Shown here: one piece after another, positions 24,575 to 41,462 of the stretch
Layout: every line of letters begins with the position of its first letter
Numbering within the stretch: the stretch's first letter is position 1
IMG/VR virus record: IMGVR_UViG_3300027668_001405
Location: 64,001-128,000 of that record
Direction: 5' to 3' (one strand)
Origin: a virus
Length of the DNA stretch: 64,000 bases
The notes under the pieces: generated by a model
Told to the model about the DNA's origin: nothing
The model's database searches: none
Seen by the model: the letters and a program-made list of their open reading frames with translations, nothing else
Made by a program: the position numbers and the translations under genes

Positions 24575-25007
24575 GCTCTTCTTCTTGCATTACTATTTGT
24601 ACCTTAACAAACAAGCTAGCAACAAGTCCACACAATGTAGTTAACAATGCTGTACTCATACCACTTGCCATGTCTGTGATAACTTGTTTCATACTATCAA
24701 CATTACTTGGGTCAATGTTAGCAAAACTACTTCCTAGCATTAGCATGAAACCTATTACAGTTCCTACCATGCCTATAGTCATGCACGACTCTGCCATAAA
24801 GAACGGCAGATCTAAATTAATTTTTTGTTTGAAATTACGGTAACCTACTATCAGTGTAGCTGTTGCCCATATGGTTATGATTACAAAGCTCAACTTGGTT
24901 ACATCATTGTCTATAAGAAATTGGATAGCATCAAAATATACTGCTATACCTACGGCGATTGCTTGCACAACTGCAATTAACCACCAGATTAAAAACGTTC
25001 TATTCAT
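24567..25007 (-). CDS. MotA/TolQ/ExbB proton-channel family protein
   Basis: IGMVGTVIGF and GMSTALLTTLCGL signature helices. Confidence 0.8.
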   Translation of the reverse strand: MNRTFLIWWLIAVVQAIAVGIAVYFDAIQFLIDNDVTKLSFVIITIWATATLIVGYRNFKQKINLDLPFFMAESCMTIGMVGTVIGFMLMLGSSFANIDPSNVDSMKQVITDMASGMSTALLTTLCGLVASLFVKVQIVMQEEEHG

Positions 25008-25026
25008 CTTAGTCCCTCTATATTAT

Positions 25027-25305
25027 TTACCTAATATTATTAGATAAACGCATCAGCATAGCCTGCTTTTCATCAAGCAGTAAGTACACTTTCATTGGTG
25101 TATCATCTGAAATACAACAACGTTCTAACTCACTCCATATTTCTGTAACAGTACCAATAGCGGCCTTGCTGTTACCTACGAAGAAAATCTTCTGGTCTTG
25201 ATACTCTTTTACTACTTGCTTTATATAGGCGGGAGTGCCCGTCAGTTTAAAAGATATTAAATTACCCATGTGTTCCGGACCATTTTCAATAGTCAGTTTC
25301 ATCAC
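25027..25305 (-). CDS. Hypothetical protein
   Basis: 92 aa ORF in operon context. Confidence 0.5.
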   Translation of the reverse strand: MMKLTIENGPEHMGNLISFKLTGTPAYIKQVVKEYQDQKIFFVGNSKAAIGTVTEIWSELERCCISDDTPMKVYLLLDEKQAMLMRLSNNIR

Positions 25306-26209: not shown

Positions 26210-27131
26210 CATTAAGTGTTCTACTGATTTCAATCAATGTAGCACTTAGGTTAATCTCTGGATCGGCTACCTGTGTATGCTTAATCATGCCTTCGCGAAT
26301 TGCAAGTACACAACTATCATATGTGAAGTCGTCATGTGTATATAAATCCAAGTTCTTGTATAGCCAAGTAAAGATGTCATTGTATTCATCTGCCCTTGCA
26401 CTGCCTACAATAAGTTTACGTGCATCTTGTATCTTACCTGCTCTAAACAGTTCTACCATGTTAACACGCCACTCGCTTGTACTTCCACCATCTTCTGGTA
26501 GTAGTAGCTTGTTATCAACAATAGTCATTTGCACTGTGTTAATAGTTTTACGCAAGTCTGGATAGTTTGCACGAACCATTGCATCTAATGTTTCTAAGTC
26601 AAAGTCAACTTTATTGTCTGCAAGTATTTCAGCAACCCGTACTGTAAAGTCTGTTTGGTCTAATGATTCAATGTGGAATCCTTGACACCTACTGTGTAAT
26701 GCAGGAATAATCATGTTAGGATAGTTACACGTTAAAATAAATCGTACACTGTGATGATACTGTTCCATAACTCCACGCAATGCCGCTTGACCTTCTGGAC
26801 TAATATGATCAGCCTCATCAAGTAGAATAACTTTAAAGTCACCCCATGGCATAGTTTCACTAAACGCTGAAATCTTCTTACGAATCATTTCAACACCATT
26901 GTCTCGACTAGCGTTAATGTAAAGTACATCTGCTGGTTCTAGGCCCAACTCTTTAATTAGTACTTTAGCTAGTGTAGTTTTACCTGTGCCAGGACTACCA
27001 CTAAACAATAGATGAGGAATGCCTTTATCGTCAATCCAGTTTTGCACTTGCTTACGCTGTGCTTCATCTTTAAATACGTACTCTTTTACATTGTCTGGTC
27101 GATACTTTTCAACCCATAAATCTCTAGCCAT
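26199..27131 (-). CDS. Clamp loader small subunit (RFC / T4 gp44-like AAA+)
   Basis: LWVEKYRP, GSPGTGKT Walker A, ILLDEAD Walker B, SRC motif. Confidence 0.95.
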   Translation of the reverse strand: MARDLWVEKYRPDNVKEYVFKDEAQRKQVQNWIDDKGIPHLLFSGSPGTGKTTLAKVLIKELGLEPADVLYINASRDNGVEMIRKKISAFSETMPWGDFKVILLDEADHISPEGQAALRGVMEQYHHSVRFILTCNYPNMIIPALHSRCQGFHIESLDQTDFTVRVAEILADNKVDFDLETLDAMVRANYPDLRKTINTVQMTIVDNKLLLPEDGGSTSEWRVNMVELFRAGKIQDARKLIVGSARADEYNDIFTWLYKNLDLYTHDDFTYDSCVLAIREGMIKHTQVADPEINLSATLIEISRTLNGNK

Positions 27132-27133
27132 CT

Positions 27134-27313
27134 TTAATCAATCTCCATTAGTTTTTCGTCTTCATCATCATAAGGTACCTCAGGGTTTAAATCCTGTACT
27201 TCTTGTTGTGTATAACAGCTTGGGTCTTTAATACCGTACTTGTTCATCATACCAAGTGCCCATGTAGACACGTCATCTCTAGTTTTAAAAGTCATGTTAC
27301 CTCTATGTTTCAT
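27134..27313 (-). CDS. Small hypothetical protein not in the ORF track
   Basis: Manual translation MKHRGNMTFKTRDDVSTWALG...EKLMEID*; follows a sigma70 promoter. Confidence 0.5.
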   Translation of the reverse strand: MKHRGNMTFKTRDDVSTWALGMMNKYGIKDPSCYTQQEVQDLNPEVPYDDEDEKLMEID

Positions 27314-27324
27314 TGTTATAGTTT

Positions 27325-27353
27325 ATTATACAGTAATATGACACTAAAGTCAA
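27325..27353 (-). promoter_or_regulatory. sigma70-type promoter
   Basis: TTGACT, 17 nt, TATAAT on the minus strand. Confidence 0.7.
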
Positions 27354-27505
27354 TCACTGATAATTTTGGTTTCCCAATTCTCAGCACAATCTTCTGCATA
27401 TCTTTTACTATGACCTTGACAGTCACGTATATGAACAAGTTTGCCTTCTTCATCATACATCTCTACAATGTATGATTTTACTTCTTTAACTATCGCTTTT
27501 CTCAT
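27350..27505 (-). CDS. Small hypothetical protein not in the ORF track
   Basis: Manual translation MRKAIVKEVKSYIVEMYDEEGK...NWETKIISD* (51 aa); fills the gap in the operon. Confidence 0.5.
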   Translation of the reverse strand: MRKAIVKEVKSYIVEMYDEEGKLVHIRDCQGHSKRYAEDCAENWETKIISD

Positions 27506-27674
27506 TTTGTTTGATCCGTTCTTGAATCAGCACATGTTGTTCTTCAATTAGTTTACGTTGTCGTTCTAATTCAAGGTACTGTTCTTCGATGTCATCTAAA
27601 CGTTGTTTCTTAATATCCGGAAATTGCAATACATTATCATCCATCCATTTAGACTTGAAAACTTTATCTGTCAT
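27486..27674 (-). CDS. Small coiled-coil hypothetical protein
   Basis: MTDKVFK...; start placed at 27674. Confidence 0.45.
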   Translation of the reverse strand: MTDKVFKSKWMDDNVLQFPDIKKQRLDDIEEQYLELERQRKLIEEQHVLIQERIKQNEKSDS

Positions 27675-27906
27675 CTTGCTTATCTTTCTTTGCTGGAAAT
27701 TGTGAAGGGAATGCTCTTTCAAGCATATCTGCGATCATTATGATCAATACAGTCGCCCAACCTAATGGACCTGCTACAAACAAGTAAGTAAACATTTGCC
27801 AATTCTTTGCTTCCTTACCTACATGTTTCTTTGCGTACATAATTATACACATAAACCAAACTATTGCAACTATTATACATAGTAGCATCATTGCATATTT
27901 TTCCAT
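27664..27906 (-). CDS. Small membrane protein
   Basis: Two hydrophobic segments. Confidence 0.5.
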   Translation of the reverse strand: MEKYAMMLLCIIVAIVWFMCIIMYAKKHVGKEAKNWQMFTYLFVAGPLGWATVLIIMIADMLERAFPSQFPAKKDKQDDR

Positions 27907-27907
27907 T

Positions 27908-28117
27908 TTACCACCATCCTAATGTTCTACCGTTGCCGGCTATAATTGCCATACAAGTTGCAACGTGTAGTACTATCCAAAATGTTCTAAACGCTAGTGC
28001 CTTTTTAACATCACTTTGGAGAATAGGCAAAAATTCTGGCTTGTCCTCGTCTGTAATCCCAATTGGCATACCTACTGTTCTAGCCCATACTTTTAAGAAT
28101 CTTCGTTGCCCACTCAT
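27908..28117 (-). CDS. Small hypothetical membrane protein
   Basis: KVWARTVGMPIG...FWIVLHVATC; C-terminal hydrophobic helix. Confidence 0.55.
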   Translation of the reverse strand: MSGQRRFLKVWARTVGMPIGITDEDKPEFLPILQSDVKKALAFRTFWIVLHVATCMAIIAGNGRTLGWW

Positions 28118-29064
28118 TAAATCTTATGTGTAAACAAACTGCTTACACTTTCTTCATTACTTACTCTTCGAATTGCTTCACCAAACATAGTTGATACACT
28201 TACTACTCGTGTTTTCTTACAATTGCTTGGACAGCTAAATTCAATACTATCTGTAATAACAAGTTCTTCAAGAGCACTGTCTTCTACTTTCTGACATGCT
28301 TTATTAGTCAGTACACCGTGTGTGATATAAGCTCGTACACTTAATGCACCTGCGTCCATAATTGCTTGTGCGGCATTACATAACGTTCCACCACTATCAA
28401 TAATGTCGTCTACTAGAATAGCATGTTGTCCTTCAACAACACCAATCAACCCCATAACTTCACTCTCACCAGCTCGTGGTCGACGTTTGTCTACAATAGC
28501 AATATCACCACCAAACATATCTGCAAATTTACGAGCTCGTACTGTACCGCCTGCATCAGGACTTACAAATACTGTACCAGCACTAGTGTCTACATTATAT
28601 TTAATATCTTTTGCGAATGCAATGCGTGATGTTAAATCATCAACAGGAATATCAAAGAAGCCCTGTATCTGTCCTGCGTGTAAATCCATTGTAAGGATTC
28701 TATCTGCACCGGATTCAGTAATTAGGTTTGCTACTAGTTTTGCTGTAATAGGTGTGCGACTTGCACTTTTACGATCTTGTCGAGCGTAACCAAAGTAAGG
28801 GATAACTGCTGTGATACGTCTAGCACTGCTACGTTTAGCGGCGTCTATCATTATCATTAGTTCCATTAGGTTGTCGTTAACAGGTGTACTTGTTGATTGT
28901 ATGATGAAAACATCCTCGCCTCTAATGTTTTCGTTAAACTCAACACTAGTCTCGCCGTCTGGAAAAGACTTAATTTCAGCTGGTACAAGTGTCGCAAAAC
29001 AATGGTCCGCAATTTTGGTTGCCATTTCAATGTTACTGTTGCCTGCGATTATTTTCATCTTCAT
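28117..29064 (-). CDS. prs: Ribose-phosphate pyrophosphokinase (PRPP synthetase)
   Basis: [51 protein letters not shown]. Confidence 0.97.
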
Positions 29065-29103
29065 TCAGTTCCCATTCTCTTTGATTGTTTGTAAGTTATG
29101 TAT

Positions 29104-29132
29104 ATTATAGTATACTTTAGGATGCTTGTCAA
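29104..29132 (-). promoter_or_regulatory. sigma70-type promoter upstream of prs
   Basis: TTGACA, 17 nt, TATAAT on the minus strand. Confidence 0.8.
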
Positions 29133-29153
29133 TAGCTATTTCAAACTATTTGG

Positions 29154-29189
29154 AAAAAAAGCTACAGCAAACAGGCCGCCTGCTGTAGC
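29154..29189 (-). terminator. Rho-independent terminator downstream of clpP
   Basis: GCTACAGCA...TGCTGTAGC 9 bp stem followed by T7 on the minus strand. Confidence 0.85.
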
Positions 29190-29199
29190 CAATAATTAA

Positions 29200-29841
29200 C
29201 TAGTAAGTGTCAACTATTTTATCTGCGATACCGTGTTTTACCGCTTCTTCTGCACTTAACCATACATCTTCTGCAGGTAGTAAGATTTCTCTGATTTTCT
29301 TTTCAGGTAATCCTGTGCAACGTTTATAGTGTTCTATCATACGTGCTGTTGATAGTTCAAACTCTTTAACACGTGCAAATAGTTCGTGTTCTTTACCTAC
29401 TGAACCCCAACTATATTGGTGTGATAAGATACTTGTATTTCGTGTTAAAATACGTCTACCCTTTTCGCCTGCCATAAATGCAAGCACTCCACATGATGCA
29501 ATCATTCCTAAGCCAACTGTCTTAATTGGTATAGCTGATCCTTTCATAGTATCAATCATACCAAAAGCGGCATGTACTGATCCTCCAGGACTGTTAATAA
29601 TCAGTGTTAGTTCATTAGGACGCTCACTATCTGGTAGTAAGTTTTTCTCAATAATCCATTGAACTACGGGTTTTGTTGTTTCGTAAGTAAACCCATCTGC
29701 AAAGTAGTATACACCTGCATCCCACATCATTTGTCCAGGTTGCTTTGGTTGTCCTAATGGTGCTGGCTTTGCGCCTGCTGGACCACCTTCTAGGGCATCG
29801 CCCATTTGTGCAATTGCACTTTGTAATTTATCAAAATCCAT
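29200..29841 (-). CDS. clpP: ClpP-like protease subunit
   Basis: INSPGGSV, GMIASCG (Ser), SHQ (His), WLSAEEAVKHGIAD. Confidence 0.9.
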   Translation of the reverse strand: MDFDKLQSAIAQMGDALEGGPAGAKPAPLGQPKQPGQMMWDAGVYYFADGFTYETTKPVVQWIIEKNLLPDSERPNELTLIINSPGGSVHAAFGMIDTMKGSAIPIKTVGLGMIASCGVLAFMAGEKGRRILTRNTSILSHQYSWGSVGKEHELFARVKEFELSTARMIEHYKRCTGLPEKKIREILLPAEDVWLSAEEAVKHGIADKIVDTY

Positions 29842-29897
29842 TTATATTCCTTGTTTAATTTTAAAGTTGTTTACGACTTATCTCGTCGCCTTAATTG

Positions 29898-30275
29898 TTA
29901 ACCTACTGCGACACGACTAGTGTCATCTGATGGTCGTTTACGTACTGACTTTGGAAGTATTGCAATTGTATTATCTTCCATTGGGTTAGTGTCATTTACT
30001 GCTAGGCACTCGTCGTTGTCAATTAGATAAAGTTTTAAATCTTCGTTAATCTTTAGTCCATTACTCCAACGTCCATGTGCAACCATGACGTACTCACCTT
30101 CTTTAATAAAGTCAATTTCTGACCCAACACTGTATACCTTAAACCAACGTGGTCTAACTGCATTCTCAGTAGCATCTTTTTCTGTAAGTATAATGCCACC
30201 TTGTGTTGTTATTGTTTGATCTGGCTTATCAATCATCTCTGCCAAAATCTTATTTTTTGTTGCTTTAACTATCAT
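29898..30275 (-). CDS. GroES/Cpn10-like co-chaperonin
   Basis: TQGGIILT...KVYSVG...IKEGEYV pattern. Confidence 0.7.
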   Translation of the reverse strand: MIVKATKNKILAEMIDKPDQTITTQGGIILTEKDATENAVRPRWFKVYSVGSEIDFIKEGEYVMVAHGRWSNGLKINEDLKLYLIDNDECLAVNDTNPMEDNTIAILPKSVRKRPSDDTSRVAVG

Positions 30276-30278
30276 TGT

Positions 30279-30650
30279 TTACTCCGTTTCAATGTCTTCC
30301 ATTGTTCCATCACTGTACTCAACCTCAAAATACTGACTTCCGTTATCTCTGGTTCTTGCAGTACGTGATACTTCTGTTACTTTCGTAGCAGTCTTCTTAG
30401 CAGGTTTGTCTACGGGCGTAGTGTCTGTCTCTGGCGCCTGTATACTTACTGGTTCTGTTACACCTGGCACTGTCTTGTCATAGTACTTATTAGCAATATC
30501 TTCTCTTGATATTTCTACGTTGTTTCTATTATCAATAATGTCGCCACGTGCATTCATGTTCAAGTTGCTTACTGCCCTTGTGTTTTCATGTTTTGCCGCC
30601 AATGCTGCCATATCTAGCACTTGGCCTTTAGCTGTTTTTACTCTTTTCAT
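30279..30650 (-). CDS. Hypothetical protein
   Basis: 123 aa; NMNARGDII motif; no function recognised. Confidence 0.6.
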   Translation of the reverse strand: MKRVKTAKGQVLDMAALAAKHENTRAVSNLNMNARGDIIDNRNNVEISREDIANKYYDKTVPGVTEPVSIQAPETDTTPVDKPAKKTATKVTEVSRTARTRDNGSQYFEVEYSDGTMEDIETE

Positions 30651-31147
30651 TTTAAGAACTCCTTGATATCAAGTTTATATTTTATGCTATCTATGCGATG
30701 CACACCTAGCAAGTACAGGCAGTAACTAGCTACACTACTACCTCTTCCCACGCCTAGTACTATGTCATTTTTATCACAAGTATCAACTAGGTATTTTAGG
30801 AATTTTAACACAATTACCATGCCTCTGTTTTCATATTCAAGAAGCTCGGTATATACTCTGTCACGTTGCTGTGCTGTAGTACAACGTTCCATTAACATCT
30901 CATTTATATTTATGTTCAAATATTCGTCGGGCATATTCCATTTACGCAAACATTCCTCAACATATGTATCACTGTTATCTTCGTAGTCTGCATTAACCAA
31001 TTCATCTAGGTCAAATGTTTCACACCACTCGTTATAAGTGTTAATTGGTGCAACATCGTCCATAATAACGTTATTTACATTACTACCGCTTAGCCAGCCG
31101 TCAACAATGTCCTGTTCGGAAATAACGTATTGCTTATTTTTGTTCAT
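30647..31147 (-). CDS. DNA polymerase III alpha (DnaE)-like fragment
   Basis: RVYTELLEY...GVGRGSSVASYCLYLLGVHRID; stops before the catalytic PDIDxD motif. Confidence 0.7.
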   Translation of the reverse strand: MNKNKQYVISEQDIVDGWLSGSNVNNVIMDDVAPINTYNEWCETFDLDELVNADYEDNSDTYVEECLRKWNMPDEYLNININEMLMERCTTAQQRDRVYTELLEYENRGMVIVLKFLKYLVDTCDKNDIVLGVGRGSSVASYCLYLLGVHRIDSIKYKLDIKEFLK

Positions 31148-31165
31148 ATGCATCCTACTATTATA

Positions 31166-31471
31166 TTACTTTTTGGCATAAAAGTCAAGCATTTCTTTAA
31201 TTGATTCTGCCTCTGGTATTTCTTCTGGTAGTATAACTTCGCCAATTTCTAGCACTGATCCATCTATTTTATCATTTTTCATCATAGCTGTTTGCACGAT
31301 CTGGTTCTTGTGATCTCTAATTAAGTCAATAAACAAATTAATTTGATCTAACATCTCACCACTCATCTGTGCTTTGGCAGCGGCTAGTACCTTCTTAAGC
31401 ATTTGCTTTTCAAATTCAATAGTCTCTTCCATTGTAAGTGTTTCAAGTGCTTTATCTTTGTAATTAATCAT
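31166..31471 (-). CDS. Hypothetical protein
   Basis: 101 aa ORF in operon context. Confidence 0.55.
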   Translation of the reverse strand: MINYKDKALETLTMEETIEFEKQMLKKVLAAAKAQMSGEMLDQINLFIDLIRDHKNQIVQTAMMKNDKIDGSVLEIGEVILPEEIPEAESIKEMLDFYAKK

Positions 31472-31914
31472 CTCATCATGTCCACTCGTTTTTGGTGTCT
31501 TCCACCTTCGAACTTTGTAGTAAAGAATGTTTTAATTATGGACTTAGCTTTTTGTAAACTAGTAAAATCAGCACCCAAGCATAATACATTTGCATCATTG
31601 TGCTTACGTGCCATTTCAGCTTCTTTTTCTGTTCTACAAACTACTGCTCTTACGCCCGGTACTCTGTTAGCTGTAATTGAAACTCCATAACCTGACCCAC
31701 AAATTAAAATACCTACATTTGATGCTTTACTAGATATTTCAATAGCTAGCTTGTTTGCAATTATAGGGTAATCTGTTTTAACTTCTGTGTGTGGTCCAAC
31801 ATCGTAGAACACAGAGATATCAAAAGTAAGATCTTTATCAATTGGAGTTAACCATTTTGATAATTGGTCTTTAAATTCATAACCTCTATGGTCTGAAGCA
31901 ATGCACAAATCCAT
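31468..31914 (-). CDS. rpiB: Ribose-5-phosphate isomerase B
   Basis: ASDHRG, GILICGSGYG...ANR, ARKHNDANVLCLG, FEGGRH. Confidence 0.93.
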   Translation of the reverse strand: MDLCIASDHRGYEFKDQLSKWLTPIDKDLTFDISVFYDVGPHTEVKTDYPIIANKLAIEISSKASNVGILICGSGYGVSITANRVPGVRAVVCRTEKEAEMARKHNDANVLCLGADFTSLQKAKSIIKTFFTTKFEGGRHQKRVDMMR

Positions 31915-32322
31915 CTAGATATCTCCGTCCTGACGGTTTTCACTATAGTATGCATCAAAGTCACCACCTGGGTAACGTGCTTTAAGTTTGTCAATGTTCA
32001 TTTGAATAACTTCATTTGGATCAATTTTTAGTGCCATGCACCCTTGCATCCAATACCACATTACATCGCCTAGTTCACGTTGCATATGATAAATGTTGTC
32101 TTCGGACATTGGCTTACCTTGAAACATAGCTTTTTTAACTATCTCAGTAAACTCTCCGGCTTCTGCACCTAGTCCACAACTTGCGGTTAGTAAACGTGGC
32201 ATATCCACGTTCTTGTTTAGATCGTTCCAGTTAGCAATAAACGCATCATTGTTTTTGCTTTGTTCACTGGTAACGGCATCTACGAATTCTTCGTACTTCT
32301 TTAGATCAATTTGTTTAGTCAT
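31915..32322 (-). CDS. mazG: MazG-like nucleotide pyrophosphohydrolase
   Basis: GLGAEAGEFTEIVKK and ELGDVMWY; start placed at MTKQ (32322). Confidence 0.9.
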   Translation of the reverse strand: MTKQIDLKKYEEFVDAVTSEQSKNNDAFIANWNDLNKNVDMPRLLTASCGLGAEAGEFTEIVKKAMFQGKPMSEDNIYHMQRELGDVMWYWMQGCMALKIDPNEVIQMNIDKLKARYPGGDFDAYYSENRQDGDI

Positions 32323-32335
32323 TTTACTCTCTCTG

Positions 32336-32731
32336 TTATTTAGATACGTTAACTTCACTAGCTAACTTATACGCTGAGTCATTAGCTTCTATTTTATCCA
32401 TATCAAAGTTTACGCTTTCTCCACATCCACAACTACTGCTTGATGCTGGATTAACTACTTCTAACATGGTACCCATAAGGTCTTGTTTTAGTTCCAGTGT
32501 CGTTCCAAATAAGAACATAATGCTTGCACTGTCAACGGCCATTTTGTGCCCGTTATCCATTATTATAACATGATCTGCTTTAGTGTCAAGCTCTGATTCT
32601 TCTTTTAATTTCCATTCATAACTAAATCCTGCACAACCACCGCCACGTAATCCTAATACAGGAACTTTGTTTTCGTTCATTTCACTTATATTAGTTAAGT
32701 GGTGCATTGCTTTGTCTGTTACTTTTATCAT
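32336..32731 (-). CDS. iscA: A-type Fe-S carrier (IscA/SufA/HesB)
   Basis: GGGCAGFSY and SCGCGESV; start placed at MIKVTD (32731). Confidence 0.92.
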   Translation of the reverse strand: MIKVTDKAMHHLTNISEMNENKVPVLGLRGGGCAGFSYEWKLKEESELDTKADHVIIMDNGHKMAVDSASIMFLFGTTLELKQDLMGTMLEVVNPASSSSCGCGESVNFDMDKIEANDSAYKLASEVNVSK

Positions 32732-33273
32732 TTTTCTATCTCCAAAGAGTTTACTGTCCAAAAGTTACTCTTACTAACTTCGGGTGAGTTGAGATATTGC
32801 AAGTTTACAATAGACACACCACCTAAAACTTGTGCGCCTGTCTGCTTTATCAATCTCTTGGTAGCAATCATACTACCTCCTGTTGCTATAAGATCGTCTG
32901 CAATAATAACTCTTGCAGTATGACCAAGTATACCTTCTTGTATTGTAAGTGTATCACTTCCATATTCAAGTTCATACGTTTCTTCTAATAGCTGTCCTGG
33001 GTATTTAGCGCCTTTCTTCCGAACCATTGTAAAAGGCAAGCCCATAGCATATGCTAAAGCCGCTCCAATTACAAATCCTCTGCTCTCAATACCAACAATA
33101 TGAGTAGGGAATAGAAACGCTTCGTCACATTCCTTTGCCATATGTTTTACTAACGGATTCCACATAGGACTACTGAACAAACTATTTACATCGTAGAAGT
33201 TAACTCCTGCAATTGGATAGTCTGGTACTGTTCTAATGAAATCTTTAATGTTTGTTATGTCTAATTCTTCCAT
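32728..33273 (-). CDS. apt: Adenine phosphoribosyltransferase
   Basis: IRTVPDYP..GVNFYD, GIESRGF, RKKG, YELEYG, IIADDLIATGGS. Confidence 0.93.
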   Translation of the reverse strand: MEELDITNIKDFIRTVPDYPIAGVNFYDVNSLFSSPMWNPLVKHMAKECDEAFLFPTHIVGIESRGFVIGAALAYAMGLPFTMVRKKGAKYPGQLLEETYELEYGSDTLTIQEGILGHTARVIIADDLIATGGSMIATKRLIKQTGAQVLGGVSIVNLQYLNSPEVSKSNFWTVNSLEIEK

Positions 33274-33285
33274 GTGTTTTTATCC

Positions 33286-34245
33286 TTATATGTCGTATGT
33301 GTTTACTTTTTTATAGTCTCGTTCAATTCTAATCATTCTACCATCAAATAACGGCAAACCTTTTAGTTTTACTATTTTAAATATATCATTCCATAAAGAA
33401 TGAGAAGTAGATCGACCACTTTTATAAGTATTCTTTTCAGCCCACAGGCCTAATATTTTATATGGGTTTTCTTTTAACCATCTTGATTTATTAAATCGTA
33501 CAGTATGTGCAAAGAATAAATCATCTGGAGATGTGCTAATACCATCACTATTATAATTAAGTCCAACATTACTTGTAAGATATGTTTCTGCCTCCCAATT
33601 ATGAATCTGATAGTGGGTACCATTGACTTGGGAATGATATGAAAAATCATTAAAAATCATTAGAAGTTGATGAGCAAAATCACTGTAGTACTGTGTCATT
33701 TCTTCTCGTTGATCCTGGCTCAGTCTTTCTTCATCATACCAGTACTTCTTTCCCATTCTAACATCCCATCTCATTCTCAATACAATATCGTATTCAGCTG
33801 TTGGTACTAAGTTGTATGCATGAAATGCACTAACAATCTGCCCATAAGCCATTGGAGACACTTTCTCGTAAAATTCCATTAACTGCTTATCTGTTAATGT
33901 ACTAAACTTATGTGTCTCGTCCCAGCCAACTTTGTAAGGTAATCTATGTGCTAGGTCTTGTCTTACCCATTCCCAAATCTCTTTTTGGTTGCTTTGCTTA
34001 AATGCTACTTGGTTATGCAGTGGATCAGGAAGTTCACATTGATCCCATGTATGCCCAAAATTATCCATAGTAACTACTGGTTCTGGAGAATGACGTCCAG
34101 TCATCTGCTTTACTAATTGCTTCCTAACTTCATAAAAGAAGTTTTGATTAGATTCCCTAATCGATACCTCTTTATTACCGTCTTGGTGATTAAAATTGCG
34201 TGTTAGTCCACTGTAACAAATTGCTATTCTTATGGGATGTGCCAT
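33286..34245 (-). CDS. Hypothetical protein, possibly glycosyltransferase-like
   Basis: IAICYSGLTR...HTWD...YDIVLRMRWD...DDLFF pattern resembles GT-A-like phage proteins; inference. Confidence 0.35.
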   Translation of the reverse strand: MAHPIRIAICYSGLTRNFNHQDGNKEVSIRESNQNFFYEVRKQLVKQMTGRHSPEPVVTMDNFGHTWDQCELPDPLHNQVAFKQSNQKEIWEWVRQDLAHRLPYKVGWDETHKFSTLTDKQLMEFYEKVSPMAYGQIVSAFHAYNLVPTAEYDIVLRMRWDVRMGKKYWYDEERLSQDQREEMTQYYSDFAHQLLMIFNDFSYHSQVNGTHYQIHNWEAETYLTSNVGLNYNSDGISTSPDDLFFAHTVRFNKSRWLKENPYKILGLWAEKNTYKSGRSTSHSLWNDIFKIVKLKGLPLFDGRMIRIERDYKKVNTYDI

Positions 34246-35460
34246 TTAATGAGCGGCCCAAACTACTGTGTTTAGATCAATTCCATCTTTATACATATCC
34301 CATAAAGGTGACAGATCTCTTAATTTCTTTACCTTGTCTCTAACAAGTCTAATTGCTTCGTCTACTTCGGCTTCAGTTGTGTAACGTCCTACACTAAAAC
34401 GTATAGAACTAGCTGATAACTCATCTGCTAAACCTAATGCTCTAAGAACATAAGATGGTTCTAAACTTGATGATGTACAAGCAGAGCCTGATGATACTGC
34501 AATGTCTGATACTGCCATTAGTAACGATTCACCTTCTACATAGCTAAAGCTAATATTTAAGTTACTGCCAATACGTTGTTCCATATCGCCATTTACTTTT
34601 ACTTCTTCCATATCTGAGAAGCCAGCGTACAATCTATCTCTAAGAGCACGTGTTCTAACTTCTTCGTCTGCCATACATTCTTGAGCAATTTCAAATGCTT
34701 CGCCTATCCCAACAATTTGATGAGTAGCTAGTGTACCTGAACGCATTCCACGTTCGTGCCCACCTCCATGCATTTGTGCTTCAAGTCTGACTCGAGGCTT
34801 ACGTGATACATAAAGAGCTCCCATGCCTTTTGGCCCGTATATCTTATGTGCTGAAAAGCTCATTAAGTCTACTGGAAGTGCTTTTAAGTCTATTGGAATT
34901 TTACCAACTGACTGTGCAGCATCGACGTGAAAAAATACTTTGTTTGCTCTGCATATATCGCCTATAGCTTGTAAGTCTTGTATTACACCAATCTCATTAT
35001 TAACGTGCATAAATGACGCTAAGATTGTGTCTTCTCTTACTGTAGCTTTAAATTCTTCAATGTCTAATAGCCCACTAGGTAACGGAGTCATATAAGTTAC
35101 TTCGAATCCTTCACGTTCTAATTGACGACAAGTATCAAGTACTGCTTTATGTTCTGTCTTTAGGGTAATAATATGCTTGCCTTGTTTTTGGTAAAACTGT
35201 GCAATACCTTTAAGTGCTAAGTTGTTTGATTCTGTTGCACCCGAAGTCCATACTATTGCTCTAGGATCACAATTTACTAAATCTGCTACTTGGTTACGAG
35301 CTTTCTCTACTGCCGCTTCTGCTTGCCAGCCATACATGTGTGAACGTGATGCTGGGTTTCCAAAGGTACCTGTTAATGTTAAACACTCTGCCATTTTCTG
35401 TGCTACTCTGGCATCTACTGGTGTTGTTGATGAGTAATCCATATACGTTGGAGTCTTCAT
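34246..35460 (-). CDS. iscS: Cysteine desulfurase IscS
   Basis: [28 protein letters not shown] (PLP Lys), SSGSACTS (catalytic Cys), C-terminal SPLWDMY; start placed at 35460. Confidence 0.97.
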
Positions 35461-35461
35461 A

Positions 35462-35836
35462 TTAGCCTTCCTCTTGTTGATCACTTTCTGTTGGGCCGTA
35501 GTCATCATAAGAGCTTAGTCCATCATCAGGGAAATCATACATTGCCATCGGGTCCGAAGTATAATACGGGTCATTAAATGCCGGATCATCTTCGCCTGTT
35601 ACACCTTTAACTTCTGGAACAAAATGCATTAGTGTGCTTTCAACACCTTGCTTTAATGTTGCCATACTACTAGCACAACCACTGCAACTTCCGCTTAGTT
35701 GTGTTTTTAAAATACCGCTATCCATATTAAAGTCAATAACGTTAACTTGTCCACCATGCGCCGCTACATTGGGCGTAACATACTCGTCCATGACTGATGA
35801 AATTTGCTCGAGTATATCTTCTTTACTTCTACTCAT
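35462..35836 (-). CDS. NifU C-terminal (Nfu) domain Fe-S carrier
   Basis: HGGQV...[16 protein letters not shown] (CxxC). Confidence 0.9.
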
Positions 35837-35978
35837 ATTTGTACCTCGTTTTTTTAACAGCCATCATGTGGATGCTACGTTCTGGTTTATCTTTACGTGT
35901 TGCAAATTGATAGCCGCTAATAAATGAAATTACTATTACTGTTGCGATTGCTAAAACATGCCATACTATAAATGTCAT
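35829..35978 (-). CDS. Small membrane protein not in the ORF track
   Basis: Manual translation MTFIVWHVLAIATVIVISFISGYQF...YKYE* (49 aa); AGGAG upstream. Confidence 0.55.
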   Translation of the reverse strand: MTFIVWHVLAIATVIVISFISGYQFATRKDKPERSIHMMAVKKTRYKYE

Positions 35979-36133
35979 ATTGACTCTCCTGTCTGTTTAA
36001 TATAATGGTGCTTATATGCTTTCATGCTTGAAAGTTTAATACGCTCCATGTGCTTAGTTGCTTCTTGTTGGTTATTATATTCACCAACAACTACTTCATT
36101 CTCAAATCTCGGTATATATACAACTTGAAACAT
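35975..36133 (-). CDS. Small hypothetical protein not in the ORF track
   Basis: Manual translation [19 protein letters not shown]...QTGESI* (52 aa); overlaps both neighbours by 1-4 nt. Confidence 0.55.
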   Translation of the reverse strand: MFQVVYIPRFENEVVVGEYNNQQEATKHMERIKLSSMKAYKHHYIKQTGESI

Positions 36134-36495
36134 TATTCGTCTCCTTTTCCAGGTTCTGCTGAAAGCAGTTCTCGTTTATTCGGTTTGCCTTTCCATTCGG
36201 CTGCATCGGGTGGAACATCATCTGGTCGAGCCAATGTAATATTCGGCCAGGCATTTTCACCCTCGCTATACTTAGTATTTATATCCATCCAGTATTGTAG
36301 TTCAGAACCTTCCAAAACATTATCAGCCCTAATAGCATCTACTGGGCATTCAGGCTCACAAACTCCACAGTCGATACACTCGTCTGGGTTAATTACTAGG
36401 AAGTTTTCACCTTCGTAAAAACAATCAACTGGACAAACTTCTACACAGTCCATATGCTTACATTTAATACAATCTTCTGTTACTAGATACGTCAT
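36133..36495 (-). CDS. fdxA: 7Fe ferredoxin (FdxA type)
   Basis: [18 protein letters not shown] and [13 protein letters not shown]. Confidence 0.95.
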
Positions 36496-36508
36496 AATTC
36501 GCCTTTAA

Positions 36509-36799
36509 TTAAAATCCTAAAATCATTCTTGTTTCTTCGCTCATCTGGTCTGGACCAAATGTAGGTTCAAATGTAACTCTTACATCACATGTATCTACAC
36601 TTTCTACTAGACAAACTGCATCATGGACTTCTGCTACGATTGCATCAGCGAATGCACAAAACGCACTTGTTAAAGTCATAACGATATCAACATGTGCTTC
36701 CTTAATATTTATTTCATAAATCAATCCCAAATCATATACGTTTATACTAATCTCTGGGTCATATACTTTTCTCAGTTCTTCAATTATCTGTTCTTTCAC
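36509..36799 (-). CDS. SufT/MIP18 (DUF59) Fe-S assembly protein
   Basis: VYDPEISINVYDLGLIY and MTLTSAFC. Confidence 0.9.
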   Translation of the reverse strand: MKEQIIEELRKVYDPEISINVYDLGLIYEINIKEAHVDIVMTLTSAFCAFADAIVAEVHDAVCLVESVDTCDVRVTFEPTFGPDQMSEETRMILGF

Positions 36800-37629
36800 T
36801 TCTTCATTCCTTTCGATAAAATCTCAGCTATTAAAAATTGCCCTTTTTGATTGATATGCATACAACCACAAAGAAAGTCTTTCTTATAGTTGGGACGCAT
36901 TGCAACCTGCTCTCTAACACTGTATCCAAGAGTTAAACAACGTTCTAATTCGTAGTCTGTTATGTGTTCCATCATTTCTTGTACTGCTACGTTAACTTCG
37001 TAATTATACCAGTAAAACTCTTTGTTATGTGCTTTACACAACAATTGCACTACTCGTATAAATTCTAGTTGACGTTGCTGTATATGCTTTGTATTGCTCA
37101 TATACAGTTTTGTTAGCTTCACGTATTCTTGTATATTTCTTAACTCGTCTACGTTAGGCGCATCACCGCAATTGTCTTTACCGTACAAATTGTCTTGCAA
37201 AGTACGAAGTGACTCTGCGTGACTAGTTCCCAATCGTTGACTCATTGTTTCTTCTATACACAATTGATAAGGTCTACTTGCAACCCCGTCTACTGTATTA
37301 AACTCTCTGCTATAGTAAATCTCTTCTTTACTACTTTGCTTGAGTTCTGGCTTATTTTCTAAGTTGTCAAATGGTATTGGAACATAATCGTAATTGAGCC
37401 GAGGCTCAATTACTAATGTTGAACAATCATCTAAATAGCCACTGTTAAAAGCGTAGGTTATCTGAGCTAACATTGTTTCGTTGTTAATGCCCGATAACCC
37501 AAAGTTTTTAACAGGCCTATCTAGTAGGTGCCCGATATACTCGCAATATGATTTGGGTACTAATCCACTTTCAAAGTCATTGCAGACTCCTTGTGTATGA
37601 CTAGTGCCAAAAAATGCAAGTGTATTCAT
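36796..37629 (-). CDS. SGNH/GDSL-like hypothetical protein
   Basis: FFGTSHTQG, NFGLSG, C-terminal HINQKG. Confidence 0.45.
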   Translation of the reverse strand: MNTLAFFGTSHTQGVCNDFESGLVPKSYCEYIGHLLDRPVKNFGLSGINNETMLAQITYAFNSGYLDDCSTLVIEPRLNYDYVPIPFDNLENKPELKQSSKEEIYYSREFNTVDGVASRPYQLCIEETMSQRLGTSHAESLRTLQDNLYGKDNCGDAPNVDELRNIQEYVKLTKLYMSNTKHIQQRQLEFIRVVQLLCKAHNKEFYWYNYEVNVAVQEMMEHITDYELERCLTLGYSVREQVAMRPNYKKDFLCGCMHINQKGQFLIAEILSKGMKK

Positions 37630-38150
37630 TATTCAGGAGCCAAAGCTTCTGAACTTAAAGTAGCCTGTTGCTCTACTCTATTTTTTGGTAGCAAGATTAC
37701 TGCGTTAGGTGTGTATATTGCACTGTTAGCACCATGCTCTGATACTTCAGCACTTTCCACCCAACAACGTCCATCTGTCTTTTTACGGATCAAGCTGTCT
37801 GCAAAATTAAATGCATGTTCTGCAAATTTCTCTGCACCAACTCCATCAAACAGTCTAATCTCTGCAAGGTTCAAAGCATCTAGTTCTTTAAACTTTTCAA
37901 GGTGTGGATCTGTTCTGTCTAAACATAGTTTATGATCGAAGTTATCTTCAAGCCACGCTTTCAACGGTTTTAGTCCGCCGAAGTCTACTGCCCAGTTATT
38001 ATTGTCCAAATGGCTAGCACCAAATGTAAATTTAAATGCTAGACTGTACCCATGTAGCAAATGACAATGTGAGTGATCTGCATTGGGTTGACGGAATACT
38101 GCACTTAGTCCAATATTGTGTCCGTATGTTTTTGTGCTTAAATAAGCCAT
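37629..38150 (-). CDS. queD: 6-carboxytetrahydropterin synthase / 6-pyruvoyl-tetrahydropterin synthase
   Basis: SHCHLLHGY, DFGGLK, FDHK, AEKFAE, SEHGAN. Confidence 0.88.
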   Translation of the reverse strand: MAYLSTKTYGHNIGLSAVFRQPNADHSHCHLLHGYSLAFKFTFGASHLDNNNWAVDFGGLKPLKAWLEDNFDHKLCLDRTDPHLEKFKELDALNLAEIRLFDGVGAEKFAEHAFNFADSLIRKKTDGRCWVESAEVSEHGANSAIYTPNAVILLPKNRVEQQATLSSEALAPE

Positions 38151-38428: not shown

Positions 38429-38495
38429 GTTTTCCTTAGTTTGTTAATTGTTGTTTTCTAACAGCAATGTTTATATTACTAATGTAATTATACAC

Positions 38496-39239
38496 TTATT
38501 TGTGCTGTTTGTCAAGAGCATATCTTACGTGTTGGCGAATTACATTATTTGGGGTTGCATCACGTTTGTGCAAGACCTTATAATTGTTATATATAAGTAA
38601 TTCGTTTGGTTTCCAGTGATGTGTATACATATGCTCTTGTTTATATACTGCTTCTTTCAACTGTTCTTCCAAATCTGTTTCAGTGTATGCTTCACTATAA
38701 AAGTAAAATGGGCCATAATCATCTTCCCATACTAGATCGTGTGTCGCTCTGTTTTTCCGTCTCCAAGCTCTTTCTTGTAAGTCGCTTTTAAATGTATACG
38801 GATATTCTTTTTGTGTCATATACTTTGTAATGCTATTTAAGCATTTAACGCCTTTAGCTGACGCTTTTAAAGCGTCTGTGCTTGCGTTGTACACACTTTG
38901 CATGTCTAAGTAGTGTGTTGGGCTACTGCCTTTATCAGCTTTAATACAGTACAATCCTACAAATGGGTGTATATCTTTGCTGTATGCACGATCGTGATGC
39001 CATAGCATATCGTCTGCATGATTTAGCTTTTCGCCTTCTTCGTCTTCAATGCCTATTGTTACTTCTTTTCTGCCATACATATCTTGATTGAGTAAATTAC
39101 CAAATAATTCAATAGTTCCTCTACCTGCGTTTTGAACGCATATGATGCCGTATGCTCCATTGTGAAAATCTTTCACTAATTCAGGAGTAATCCAATCTAC
39201 GTCGACTTCGTGTTTAAATTTATATTTTTCTGTAGTCAT
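38496..39239 (-). CDS. TauD/TfdA-like 2OG-Fe(II) dioxygenase
   Basis: WHHD (HxD) and HHWKPNELLIYNNYKVLHKR. Confidence 0.8.
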   Translation of the reverse strand: MTTEKYKFKHEVDVDWITPELVKDFHNGAYGIICVQNAGRGTIELFGNLLNQDMYGRKEVTIGIEDEEGEKLNHADDMLWHHDRAYSKDIHPFVGLYCIKADKGSSPTHYLDMQSVYNASTDALKASAKGVKCLNSITKYMTQKEYPYTFKSDLQERAWRRKNRATHDLVWEDDYGPFYFYSEAYTETDLEEQLKEAVYKQEHMYTHHWKPNELLIYNNYKVLHKRDATPNNVIRQHVRYALDKQHK

Positions 39240-39783
39240 TTGTTAACGGATTTTCACCCCTCCATATAATATGTTGCCAGCATTCGTCACCTTCACCTGG
39301 TGCAGTTTGCCACTCATAATCTTCTAAGACCCAATCCTTGTGTCTACAATTATAATTTAACCCTCTGTGCAAATTACGCATTACTTTATGATTACCATGT
39401 TCTCTGCTTACAAAGTGTTTAGTTAAGCCGTTAGCAATTGCAAATTCAACTTGTTGATCTGCATGTTCTGCTGTAAATGTGCTTAATCCTTTAACATGGT
39501 ATTTGTGTATACGCAATCCTTTTTGTGCTACGTTTAATTTCTTGCTAGTGTAGTACCTACTAAGTACTCTAACACCACCATTATAAAAATCTCTTGTTCT
39601 AGCTACACTACCTGCAATTGGATCACCATCATCGTCCCATGTTACACTATAGCATAAGTTTTCGTCACTGCTTAAACTTTCTATATCGTAATTATGAGGC
39701 AATCTATTCAAAGGATCTTTTAGCGACTCTTCAAATAGTGCTATAAGTTCCAATGGTATCCAATCTGTAGTTTCTGTGTGCAT
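39220..39783 (-). CDS. Hypothetical GNAT-like protein, related to 41862-42374
   Basis: IAGSVARTRDFYNGGVRVLSRYY beta-strand pattern and Q...A...FVSRE segment; fold is inference. Confidence 0.4.
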   Translation of the reverse strand: MHTETTDWIPLELIALFEESLKDPLNRLPHNYDIESLSSDENLCYSVTWDDDGDPIAGSVARTRDFYNGGVRVLSRYYTSKKLNVAQKGLRIHKYHVKGLSTFTAEHADQQVEFAIANGLTKHFVSREHGNHKVMRNLHRGLNYNCRHKDWVLEDYEWQTAPGEGDECWQHIIWRGENPLTNDYRKI

Positions 39784-40733
39784 TAGCTTTCTTTAAGAGT
39801 TTTGTAATTAAATGCAATACGGTAAAGTAACCGATCACCTTTAACTGCATTACGTGCATGGTAACTCATAAACTGATCGTTAATGATTAAGTCACCTGTT
39901 TTCCAATGATGATGATACATATACTGTGGCTGGAATAAGTGTTTATGCAAAGCGTCTAATAATGGCTTTGCTTCTTCCAATGTAATCTCTTCTTTGGTTT
40001 CTTTGTTCCTAAGTTTACGCATAACACCAAAGTGTCCTGTGTAAATTGCTTTAGGACTATTCTCTTGATCCCACCAGCCAGGAATAGTTCTAAAAGGATG
40101 TTGAACAATTAATGGTTTCCAACTACCTCTTACTGGATTGAGCTCCTTGTCACCTTTACGTCCTGTACTTTTTAAGTTACCTTCAAATATTGCTAGTAAC
40201 TCGTCCATGCCTTTATTTAAATTCTCATCATCAAATTGATATATGCTATTATCTTTGTCGAACTGTGCCCAATACTCGTACTTGTCCGCTGCTTCTTTTA
40301 AGTCCTGTGGTAAATCTACATATGCTTGATGACTATTTAAATAACTAGTTACAACTTGCTCTCCGGGCTTAACACAATAGAACGCAATGCAAGATTCCCT
40401 TACATGTTTCCAATGACGCCAGTTTCCATTGTTATGCCAACCTAATTCACTTTCGGGAAATAAGCCAACAAACTTTCCATCTTCATCTTTTTCATTTGTT
40501 ACTCTACTTATGCCAGGATAGTCTTTGTGTTCAAAGTAAACATCAAAACCGGCTTTGCGTGGACTGTACAATGTGCCAATACTTGTTGCACCTGCTAGCA
40601 GTTCTTCTTCATTGAGATTGGCACCTGGAATATACGCAATAATATCCTTTGGTTGGTTACGAATAACCTCATGCCAGTTCTCTGGATCTCTCATATCTAA
40701 ATTATATTCTGTCGCTGTAAACTTATAGTCCAT
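39783..40733 (-). CDS. TauD/TfdA-like 2OG-Fe(II) dioxygenase with atypical H-x-N motif
   Basis: WHNN, PLIVQHP, YHHHWKTGDLIINDQ..YHAR. Confidence 0.75.
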   Translation of the reverse strand: MDYKFTATEYNLDMRDPENWHEVIRNQPKDIIAYIPGANLNEEELLAGATSIGTLYSPRKAGFDVYFEHKDYPGISRVTNEKDEDGKFVGLFPESELGWHNNGNWRHWKHVRESCIAFYCVKPGEQVVTSYLNSHQAYVDLPQDLKEAADKYEYWAQFDKDNSIYQFDDENLNKGMDELLAIFEGNLKSTGRKGDKELNPVRGSWKPLIVQHPFRTIPGWWDQENSPKAIYTGHFGVMRKLRNKETKEEITLEEAKPLLDALHKHLFQPQYMYHHHWKTGDLIINDQFMSYHARNAVKGDRLLYRIAFNYKTLKES

Positions 40734-40736
40734 TCT

Positions 40737-41462
40737 TTACCTCTTAATTAATCTTATAAACCAAGCACCCGGGTCTAATTGCCAGAAGTGCTTTCCTATT
40801 TTCCAATTCCTGGAGTCTTCATGATGGTTTTTATGCCACCCTTCACCACCTGTTAAAATATTAGCAATCCAACTATTCTTAGGTTTGCCTGATTCCGTAT
40901 GTGGTATTAAATTGACAAGGCCGTAGCCGTGAAATGCTAACACTACTGGCATACAAAATCCAAACAAGAATAATGTAGGACTCATTACTAGTAATACTAG
41001 CATTAAACCTAAAATTAATGTAAAGTAGTGAGTGTGAAAAAACTTTATACAAGGTGTATTTAAACCTTTAATCATTTTTCTTTCGATAGTTACGTCATTG
41101 CCCCATTGACTAGTATAAACTTTAAAGAATCCTTTGAGTGTAGGACTATGTGGATCCTTATGTGTATCAGTGTATGCATGATGCATTCTATGTGTAGCCG
41201 CCCAAGTCAACACTGGACCTGGATTTGCAAACAATCCAATAATTTGAGCATACCACTCATACCATGGACCTGTTTCAAACGACCTGTGACTAAAGTATCT
41301 GTGATATCCAGAACTTATAGCCGAAGCCGCTATCCACTGCCACCATAAAAAACTACATACAAACATCCATAACTCACCAACTATAATAGCTGGTATAATC
41401 ATAATGTGACATAACGCATGTATTGAAAGAAGTTTGCTAGTTACTGAAACTTTTTTGAACAT
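40737..41462 (-). CDS. Membrane fatty acid desaturase (delta-9/acyl-CoA type)
   Basis: Three His boxes GYHRYFSH, HRMHH, GEGWHKNHH; DPHSP. Confidence 0.92.
   Translation of the reverse strand: MFKKVSVTSKLLSIHALCHIMIIPAIIVGELWMFVCSFLWWQWIAASAISSGYHRYFSHRSFETGPWYEWYAQIIGLFANPGPVLTWAATHRMHHAYTDTHKDPHSPTLKGFFKVYTSQWGNDVTIERKMIKGLNTPCIKFFHTHYFTLILGLMLVLLVMSPTLFLFGFCMPVVLAFHGYGLVNLIPHTESGKPKNSWIANILTGGEGWHKNHHEDSRNWKIGKHFWQLDPGAWFIRLIKR

Follow-up and report, generated by a model that had tools for sequence, protein, structure and literature searches.

The stretch of viral DNA analysed here (64,000 nucleotides, called the window, to which coordinates refer) comprises bases 64001-128000 of the IMG/VR record IMGVR_UViG_3300027668_001405, a linear sequence of 137,797 bp with a CheckV completeness of about 40%. 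Reading the minus strand from 36799 to 32336, we find genes for a DUF59 protein, an FdxA ferredoxin, two small open reading frames (ORFs), Nfu, IscS, a protein of 319 amino acids (a.a.), adenine phosphoribosyltransferase (APRT) and an A-type carrier; five of these belong to iron–sulfur (Fe-S) biochemistry, and two unrelated genes (the 319-a.a. gene and APRT) interrupt the set. A preliminary description of this DNA had claimed the five genes and proposed that they supply [4Fe-4S] clusters to 13 radical S-adenosylmethionine (SAM) enzymes encoded in the same window. Searches against Pfam, NCBIfam and PDB sequences bear out all five, with their key residues kept:

32336-32731, minus strand: A-type Fe-S carrier of the IscA/ErpA/SufA superfamily, extended C-terminally by ~25 a.a.; PF01521, TIGR00049, ligand cysteines
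34246-35460, minus strand: IscS cysteine desulfurase (group I); PF00266, IscS equivalogs, phylogenetic tree
35462-35836, minus strand: lone Nfu domain with an acidic C-terminal tail; PF01106 (3.1e-20), CxxC
36133-36495, minus strand: FdxA-type 7Fe ferredoxin (predicted [3Fe-4S] and [4Fe-4S] clusters); Fer4 and DUF3470, FdxA_Protbact equivalog
36509-36799, minus strand: stand-alone DUF59 protein (SufT-like, single domain); PF01883 (5.5e-17), alignment with TM0487

Identity of the iron–sulfur and radical SAM genes

The IscS protein (PF00266, 6e-83) scores above both IscS equivalog cut-offs (NF010611: 721.9 bits against 548; TIGR02006: 707.2 against 643.2) and aligns with Escherichia coli IscS over the full 404 residues (E-value about 1e-195; about three quarters of the residues are identical, as counted on the alignment). 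It keeps the lysine motif that binds pyridoxal phosphate, the mobile loop with the catalytic cysteine (SSGSAC) and the C-terminal tail (...WAAH) used for IscU binding, all three of which are invariant in six phage copies; from these residues, desulfurase activity and sulfur transfer to IscU are predicted. Its true start is probably M17 of the ORF that begins at 35508, i.e. position 35460, because all relatives are 404 a.a. long; this start lies one base past the stop codon of the Nfu gene.

The carrier (PF01521, 8.5e-10; 39.3 bits against a cut-off of 26.3) passes only one subfamily model, TIGR00049 (69.3 bits against 58.8), and stays below the equivalog cut-offs of ErpA (66.5 against 117 bits), SufA (65.5 against 136) and IscA (45.9 against 150.6). 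It has the three ligand cysteines of the A-type family (C33, C101 and C103, in a C-x(n)-C-G-C pattern invariant across six viral copies). The Nfu protein (72.5 bits on PF01106, cut-off 27) has a CxxC motif (CSGC) aligned to CTSC of human NFU1; it matches the NfuA model at positions 105-181 of 190 only, i.e. the C-terminal half (58.7 bits, below the cut-off of 269). The CxxC domain and the three-cysteine carrier are the very parts with which E. coli NfuA and ErpA hand [4Fe-4S] clusters to their targets, and NfuA restores the auxiliary cluster of LipA, itself a radical SAM enzyme. The phage proteins differ from these in that Nfu lacks the N-terminal (degenerate A-type) targeting domain and has an acidic tail instead, and in that the carrier fails the ErpA cut-off and bears the C-terminal extension.

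The DUF59 protein (62.3 bits on PF01883, cut-off 23.5) has its conserved cysteine aligned to that of TM0487. It falls under the cut-offs of the SufT and SUF_assoc models (TIGR02945: 103.8 against 143.4 bits; TIGR03406: 84.4 against 202.6) and no sufBC genes adjoin it. Single-domain SufT and Nfu proteins of Staphylococcus aureus, which share the architectures of the two phage proteins, aid Fe-S protein maturation under high cofactor demand (PMC4982691), the situation proposed here; the phage DUF59 protein differs from S. aureus SufT in its model scores and gene neighbours, and its likely host uses the ISC system.

The ferredoxin passes the FdxA_Protbact equivalog (148.6 bits against 135) and carries a DUF3470 tail (3e-12). 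Its cysteine patterns (CxxCxxxxC...CP and CxxCxxCxxxCP) align with those of Azotobacter vinelandii ferredoxin I, over the full length and with every cluster cysteine kept. What sets it apart from ferredoxin I is that a phage encodes it; a role as reductant of radical SAM enzymes is conjecture.

The preliminary description found no IscU or SufB/SufD scaffold in the window, and this is borne out; none is encoded in the whole record either, which at ~40% completeness may leave an IscU gene outside the captured fragment. A complete ISC system is accordingly absent from the record, and none of the phage loci compared has genes of the size of HscBA in the neighbourhood of iscS.

The number of 13 radical SAM genes in the window was likewise correct, with 12 in one array and one further on:

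1026-21062, plus strand: array with 12 radical SAM genes, in convergent orientation to the Fe-S unit; its products would be the clients
54163-55395, minus strand: the one radical SAM gene of the window outside the array, with SPASM domain (N-terminal) and core
2072-3325, 5805-7061, 11588-12838, 14103-15281, 16928-18235 and 54163-55395: radical SAM genes with an N-terminal SPASM domain

In the whole record, 21 proteins match PF04055 and 23 have a CxxxCxxC motif. The six proteins on the last line of the list show a reversed domain order, with the SPASM-type auxiliary domain before the CxxxCxxC core. Two genes of the array (7048-8334 and 8331-9713, encoding 428 and 460 a.a.) have neither a Pfam match nor a CxxxCxxC motif. 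Further genes of possible relevance to radical SAM chemistry are a PNP_UDP_1 gene inside the array (like nucleosidases acting on methylthioadenosine and S-adenosylhomocysteine) and, elsewhere in the record, a SufE gene that overlaps MetK and is followed by a peroxiredoxin gene.

Relatives of the phage and origin of its IscS

The family-B DNA polymerase of the record (51009-53702, phrog_262) has 45-47% identity with its counterparts in the jumbo phages Phosso, Atu_ph07, GAP32 and 121Q, a gp44-like clamp loader is also encoded, and an IMG/VR relative (G018), the sole complete genome among the relatives, measures 346,856 bp with terminal repeats. On these grounds the record, whose GC content is even (0.34-0.39), is a fragment of a marine jumbo myovirus with a predicted genome of ~350 kb, related to the Rak2/Atu_ph07 group. 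We compared it (as G000) within a panel of 24 records, which includes six IMG/VR contigs picked by their IscS, thirteen long ones picked by their polymerase and the four isolated jumbo phages named above, and scanned all of them for radical SAM, IscS, IscU, carrier, Nfu, DUF59 and DUF3470/FdxA genes. Among GenBank phages, megablast with the 4.5-kb Fe-S stretch gave no match, tblastn with Nfu gave nothing, and tblastn with IscS gave nothing credible (only small unannotated fragments or iscR-flanked records resembling host DNA); therefore no isolated phage can be used as a model.

IscU is encoded in seven of the 24 records: directly 3' of iscS in G002, G003, G005 and G010, elsewhere in G004, directly 5' of a carrier gene in G018, and in G017. 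The idea of a scaffold-less, late-acting set is thus not true of the lineage, where IscU usually comes right after iscS; the missing scaffold is at most a property of this fragment. The IscU gene of G017 (L263:1817-3223; G017:C1:70816-72222) is one frame of 468 a.a. in which the two NifU_N halves lie ~320 residues apart; the insert has a weak match to a Hint module (8e-05, below cut-off) and may be an intein within a viral IscU.

The gene order Nfu-[slot]-APRT-carrier-MazG is kept in G000, G004 and G007, and the APRT-carrier pair is kept in G003 as well. The slot between Nfu and APRT holds IscS and the 319-a.a. gene in G000, only a distant homologue of the latter in G004, and nothing in G007. 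In G004, iscS lies 80 kb away from the slot and its next gene encodes a radical SAM/SPASM protein; in G002 and G005, iscS and iscU are followed by a CxxxCxxC/SPASM gene. The carriers of G000, G004, G007 and G003 continue for ~25-35 residues past the CGCG motif, a feature of neither canonical carriers nor the G018 and G001 copies. SufE was rejected as a clade feature, since among the panel it is found only in this record. MetK is present in the radical-SAM-rich relatives G003, G004 and G018, and absent from G017 and the four isolates.

Compared with the bacterial ISC operon (iscRSUA-hscBA-fdx, as in Ca. Pseudothioglobus and Ca. Thioglobus), the phage has an equivalog of IscS, and its relatives keep the orders iscS-iscU or, in G018, iscU-iscA. 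IscR, HscB, HscA and the [2Fe-2S] ferredoxin are missing, as is IscU from this record, and the phage genes are scattered among unrelated ones, in the company of three that are foreign to the operon (Nfu, DUF59 and the 7Fe ferredoxin).

The closest cellular IscS proteins, encoded within genuine iscRSUA-hscBA-fdx operons, are those of Ca. Pseudothioglobus aerophilus (84%) and Ca. Thioglobus (80%). Maximum-likelihood analysis unites five phage copies in a clade (97 in the SH-like approximate likelihood ratio test), sister to Ca. P. aerophilus (99) and inside the Pseudothioglobaceae (100); by this tree, the phage IscS is a capture from the Pseudothioglobaceae (SUP05/Arctic96BD-19). Identity among the phage copies ranges over 75-88%, with four of the five other copies at 86-88%. 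The IscS of G004 (L098:8201-9415) falls outside the five-copy clade, among other Pseudothioglobaceae-like sequences, and its branching suggests a second, independent capture of iscS by the phage lineage. Each of five genomes of the host family encodes the two-domain NfuA (196-201 a.a.); DUF59 is found there only as the N-terminus of a protein of ~370 a.a., and FdxA in one of the five (Ca. P. aerophilus). With IscS and NfuA present in the host genomes and stand-alone DUF59 absent from them, the phage therefore duplicates the functions of IscS and Nfu and adds a stand-alone DUF59 protein.

At least 14 marine DNA runs, spread over many studies, contain a near-identical stretch, and in marine metagenomes IscS is represented by at least 120 clusters at 85-89% identity, with some members on contigs as long as 180-330 kb. 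The lineage thus appears widespread, and its likely hosts matter for the cycling of sulfur and carbon in the ocean.

What the iron–sulfur genes may serve

In our view the Fe-S genes make up a flexible auxiliary module by which a marine jumbo phage of Pseudothioglobaceae would raise the capacity of the infected cell to make, deliver and repair [4Fe-4S] clusters, chiefly for the phage's own Fe-S enzymes and above all its radical SAM enzymes; we put the probability of this reading at about one half. In the scheme that we infer, host RNA polymerase would transcribe the Fe-S genes in a ~9-kb unit, from a promoter at 38515-38487 to a terminator at 29190-29160. The host-derived IscS would move cysteine sulfur onto the IscU of the host, or onto a phage IscU encoded outside this fragment, and the A-type carrier, the lone Nfu and the stand-alone DUF59 protein would hand clusters to apo-proteins or repair them, while FdxA may supply electrons. 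Most likely to benefit would be the 21-23 radical SAM enzymes of the phage, many of which have extra cluster domains. Turnover of radical SAM enzymes yields 5'-deoxyadenosine, from which a nucleosidase releases adenine, and APRT salvages adenine with phosphoribosyl pyrophosphate; the same record could provide SAM (MetK), by-product removal and adenine salvage (the nucleosidase-like protein and APRT), another sulfur acceptor (SufE) and protection from peroxide.

We favour service to the radical SAM load because of this company of genes (SufE, MetK, peroxiredoxin and the nucleosidase-like gene), the predicted coupling of APRT to the carrier, the iscS or iscS-iscU genes that abut a CxxxCxxC/SPASM gene in G002, G004 and G005, and the presence of MetK and Fe-S genes in the radical-SAM-rich relatives and not in the four isolates. 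On the same side count the perfect promoters, co-oriented with the genes in array and Fe-S unit alike, the RNA-library contigs that span both blocks, and the published experience that foreign enzymes of the Fe-S and radical SAM kinds frequently require cognate partners for biogenesis and electron transfer (PMC8896826). The core of the earlier proposal, a sulfur, carrier and ferredoxin set beside a very large radical SAM load, is real, and service to that load is its most economical reading, but its wording as scaffold-less, matched and one system exceeds the evidence.

The match to the load was examined in the polymerase-selected records of at least 75 kb (n = 11, seven of them aquatic). The density of radical SAM genes is correlated with the number of Fe-S families (Spearman rho 0.74, p 0.009), and the comparison of records with any Fe-S gene and records with none gives p = 0.052. 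G018 has 19 radical SAM genes together with IscU, two carriers, FdxA and MetK; the four isolates, from enteric and soil settings, have one to four radical SAM genes, no Fe-S genes and no MetK. The signal is mostly one contrast, that between the aquatic clade and the enteric/soil isolates, and the claimed match is weak.

A number of observations weigh against a tie between the Fe-S set and the radical SAM load. Among the seven aquatic records alone the correlation is not significant (rho 0.49, p = 0.27); G015 has eight radical SAM genes and not one Fe-S gene in 127 kb, and G017 has IscU and two carriers yet only three radical SAM genes in 200 kb. Radical SAM genes are missing from 15 of 20 other carrier-encoding viral contigs of 30-135 kb, although most of these are small fragments (10-37% complete) whose absences are weak evidence, and two of the 20 have arrays of seven to eight. 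The plus-strand array ends at 21062 and the minus-strand block at 21064, so that the two are convergent neighbours and not one operon. The composition and position of the set shift between close relatives: IscS is missing from the Nfu-APRT slot in the two nearest ones (G007 and G004), and within the panel DUF59 is confined to G000 and G007 (G020 is the only further record listed with it), Nfu to four of the 24 records and SufE to G000. The record encodes no flavodoxin, FNR-type ferredoxin reductase or glutaredoxin, and a 7Fe FdxA is not known to us as a reductant of radical SAM enzymes. Contigs from the RNA libraries of two studies match 17000-36999 at ≥99% identity and so take in the end of the radical SAM array as well as the Fe-S genes; they carry no level, timing or strand and may stem from DNA carry-over, and hence cannot establish co-expression, which they do not refute either. 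That array and Fe-S set form one system is accordingly not shown: the two units are convergent, the Fe-S genes share a putative operon with QueD, APRT, MazG, RpiB and ClpP, and the slot of IscS varies. DUF59 was also considered as a marker of radical-SAM-rich phages and rejected, as it is absent from both array-bearing carrier contigs and present in one contig without an array.

Many of these observations would also be expected if the genes were generic auxiliary metabolic genes that keep Fe-S enzymes of the host (in respiration, sulfur oxidation and central metabolism) running in iron-poor, oxic sea water, with no special tie to the array and a co-occurrence that merely reflects the habit of jumbo phages to gather metabolic genes. 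Carriers are very common in IMG/VR viral contigs (at least 571 confirmed matches), and, as said, 15 of the 20 sampled contigs of 30-135 kb lack a radical SAM gene; Fe-S assembly genes have been published as widespread auxiliary genes of photic-zone and Thioglobus viruses (PMC5332604, PMC10721903); the island around the genes at issue is a mixed one, which also has Prs, RpiB, MazG, ClpP, TauD and a desaturase; and G017 combines its IscU and carriers with few radical SAM genes. But representatives of the host already own the full iscRSUA-hscBA-fdx operon and NfuA, the phage MetK, nucleosidase-like gene and APRT suit radical SAM turnover and not respiration, radical SAM genes adjoin iscS in three relatives, and the low completeness of the sampled contigs makes a missing radical SAM gene say little. 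We regard this explanation as possible, with odds clearly below even.

A smaller chance still is given to clients or roles outside the array, namely the 7-deazaguanine pathway (QueE, with QueD in the unit), IscS as the hub of a sulfur relay for thio-modification of tRNA, DNA or cofactors, or FdxA feeding oxygenase-type neighbours (a desaturase and a ring-hydroxylase-like protein). The putative unit has a QueD-like gene three genes upstream, which in G003 adjoins FdxA-APRT-carrier, and in G005 a distance of 900 bp separates iscS from a QueE-like radical SAM gene, but one QueE cannot account for five to seven biogenesis genes. IscS reaches 423 bits on the DndA model, which is under the DndA cut-off, whereas it passes the IscS equivalogs; the annotation of the record names no dnd, tusA, thiI or mnmA-type partner, no search having been aimed at these families. 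Enzymes of the desaturase and ring-hydroxylase types often use ferredoxins, and a membrane desaturase and a ring-hydroxylating alpha-subunit-like gene are on the same strand, the match of the latter being weak and limited to the catalytic domain (9e-05, below cut-off). Taken together, we find these roles improbable as the main one. Least probable is that recently captured host genes merely ride in a hypervariable slot with little or no benefit to the phage. The changing position of IscS among close relatives, its possible double capture (the G004 copy branches apart) and the empty slot of G007 would suit such passengers, but all frames are intact with catalytic residues kept, the IscS copies of the phages group together with support and with 75-88% mutual identity, GC content is shifted toward the phage value (0.39 against 0.37), and both the near-identical stretch (at least 14 DNA runs, many studies) and the IscS clusters (at least 120, at 85-89% identity) recur in the sea.

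Supply of clusters chiefly to the phage's own enzymes, the reading that we prefer, has precedents. Nishimura et al. (2017) described carrier genes, IscU genes or both in 16 viral genomes from the sea, and the proposal that viral Fe-S assembly genes serve virus-encoded Fe-S proteins was already made there for marine phages (PMC5332604); Thioglobus viruses with Fe-S genes have also been reported (PMC10721903). The 183-kb T4-like genome TARA_ERS488813_N000010 has a carrier, PaaD/DUF59, Cas4, Grx and 12 radical SAM genes (PMC5332604), and shares with the phage described here its standing as an uncultivated marine myovirus, the A-type carrier, DUF59 and the radical SAM genes. ClpP, which PMC5332604 lists as Fe-S-related, is also in the putative Fe-S unit of our phage; cysteine desulfurase, Nfu and ferredoxin are not mentioned in the main text of that paper. 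Our phage differs from the TARA genome as a ~350-kb jumbo phage of another lineage, with about twice the radical SAM genes and with IscS, Nfu, FdxA, SufE, MetK and a nucleosidase-like gene in addition. Two recent reviews of jumbo phages mention neither Fe-S nor radical SAM genes. The set, which is the fullest among the phages compared here, is thus a fuller, jumbo-phage form of a published viral auxiliary module; the host assignment is new, and IscS, Nfu, FdxA, SufE, MetK, the nucleosidase and APRT are additional parts.

A more ambitious form of the preferred reading, which we hold only tentatively, is that of a near self-sufficient radical SAM kit. In it, IscS and SufE would provide sulfur, the carrier, Nfu and DUF59 delivery and repair, FdxA a dedicated low-potential reductant, MetK the SAM, and the nucleosidase, APRT, Prs and RpiB clearance and salvage; together with peroxide protection, this would let an oxygen-sensitive pathway of >20 radical SAM enzymes run inside an aerobic, genome-streamlined host; the carriers would be adapted to radical SAM proteins with N-terminal auxiliary domains. 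If the link between the Fe-S set and the radical SAM enzymes is real, the phage would be the clearest case of a virus that brings a large set of oxygen-sensitive metalloenzymes along with cofactor supply, reductant and by-product handling, and the working of such pathways in marine bacteria that are aerobic and have streamlined genomes would be accounted for. The heterologous expression of difficult radical SAM enzymes is a known bottleneck (PMC8896826), for which the phage genes would be a natural, compact set of helpers.

Neighbouring genes and transcription

The remaining genes of the stretch and the probable borders of its transcription unit are as follows:

29160-29190, minus strand: hairpin of 14 pairs with a T run, directly after ClpP; likely end of the unit
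32728-33273, minus strand: APRT; NF002636, 165.8 bits against a cut-off of 125
33286-34245, minus strand: virus-specific protein of 319 a.a., possibly glycosyltransferase-like; no Pfam or NCBIfam match
35829-36133, minus strand: two small ORFs of 52 and 49 a.a., of no family; the 49-a.a. ORF is kept in G007 (68% identity)
36796-37629, minus strand: protein of 277 a.a. with no Pfam or NCBIfam match; the G007 counterpart is 32% alike over 94 a.a.
37629-38150, minus strand: QueD/PTPS-like protein (7-deazaguanine pathway); PF01242 (1e-12), under the QueD equivalog cut-off
38487-38515, minus strand: perfect sigma-70 promoter (TTGACA-17-TATAAT), intergenic; likely start of the Fe-S unit

The stop codon of APRT overlaps the start codon of the carrier (ATGA), an arrangement by which the two genes are, to judge from the overlap, translationally coupled. 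Genes for Prs and RpiB are also found near the Fe-S set. The look-alikes of the 319-a.a. protein in the Atlas are viral hypothetical proteins; as a virus-only family with a homologue in the slot of G004, where iscS is absent, it was rejected as a hidden Fe-S factor.

Because of the promoter at 38515-38487 and the hairpin at 29190-29160, the first strong one with a T run on that strand downstream of the promoter, the Fe-S genes are probably transcribed by host polymerase together with QueD, APRT, MazG, RpiB and ClpP, as a single unit of ~9 kb. The window has 12 perfect sites of the form TTGACA-N16-18-TATAAT against 0.13 expected by chance, nearly all oriented like the genes around them:

Perfect sigma-70 sites (minus-strand sites marked (-)): 1902, 7198, 14435(-), 22149(-), 29104(-), 32562(-), 38487(-), 41828, 46990(-), 48919(-), 50818(-), 57053(-)

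These perfect sites suggest transcription of the metabolic region by the polymerase of the host (early-type). Two of them (1902 and 7198) lie within the array, so that the promoters of array and Fe-S unit are compatible with a single temporal class, without proving one. Only the perfect 12/12 matches stand out; broad scans of the window for sigma-70-like promoters and for terminators were overall not above shuffles, and the T4 late-promoter motif TATAAATA is not enriched (three matches, 10 expected) and assigns no timing class. One perfect promoter (32562-32589, minus strand) sits within the carrier gene, and another (14435-14463, minus strand) is antisense within the radical SAM array.

Just upstream of the Fe-S unit and on the same strand, 38496-41462 encodes two TauD-family 2-oxoglutarate oxygenases and a membrane fatty-acid desaturase, which are 75-90% conserved in G007. 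The ring-hydroxylating oxygenase alpha-subunit-like protein lies at 22852-23934 (catalytic domain only, PF00848, 9e-05, a weak match below cut-off, with no Rieske domain reported). An ORF of 168 a.a. at 30647-31153 is a stand-alone piece of the NTPase domain of DNA polymerase III alpha (PF07733, 2.5e-09), 74% conserved in G004 and G007, and a small MotA/ExbB proton-channel-like protein (PF01618, 6.7e-09) is encoded at 24567-25007.

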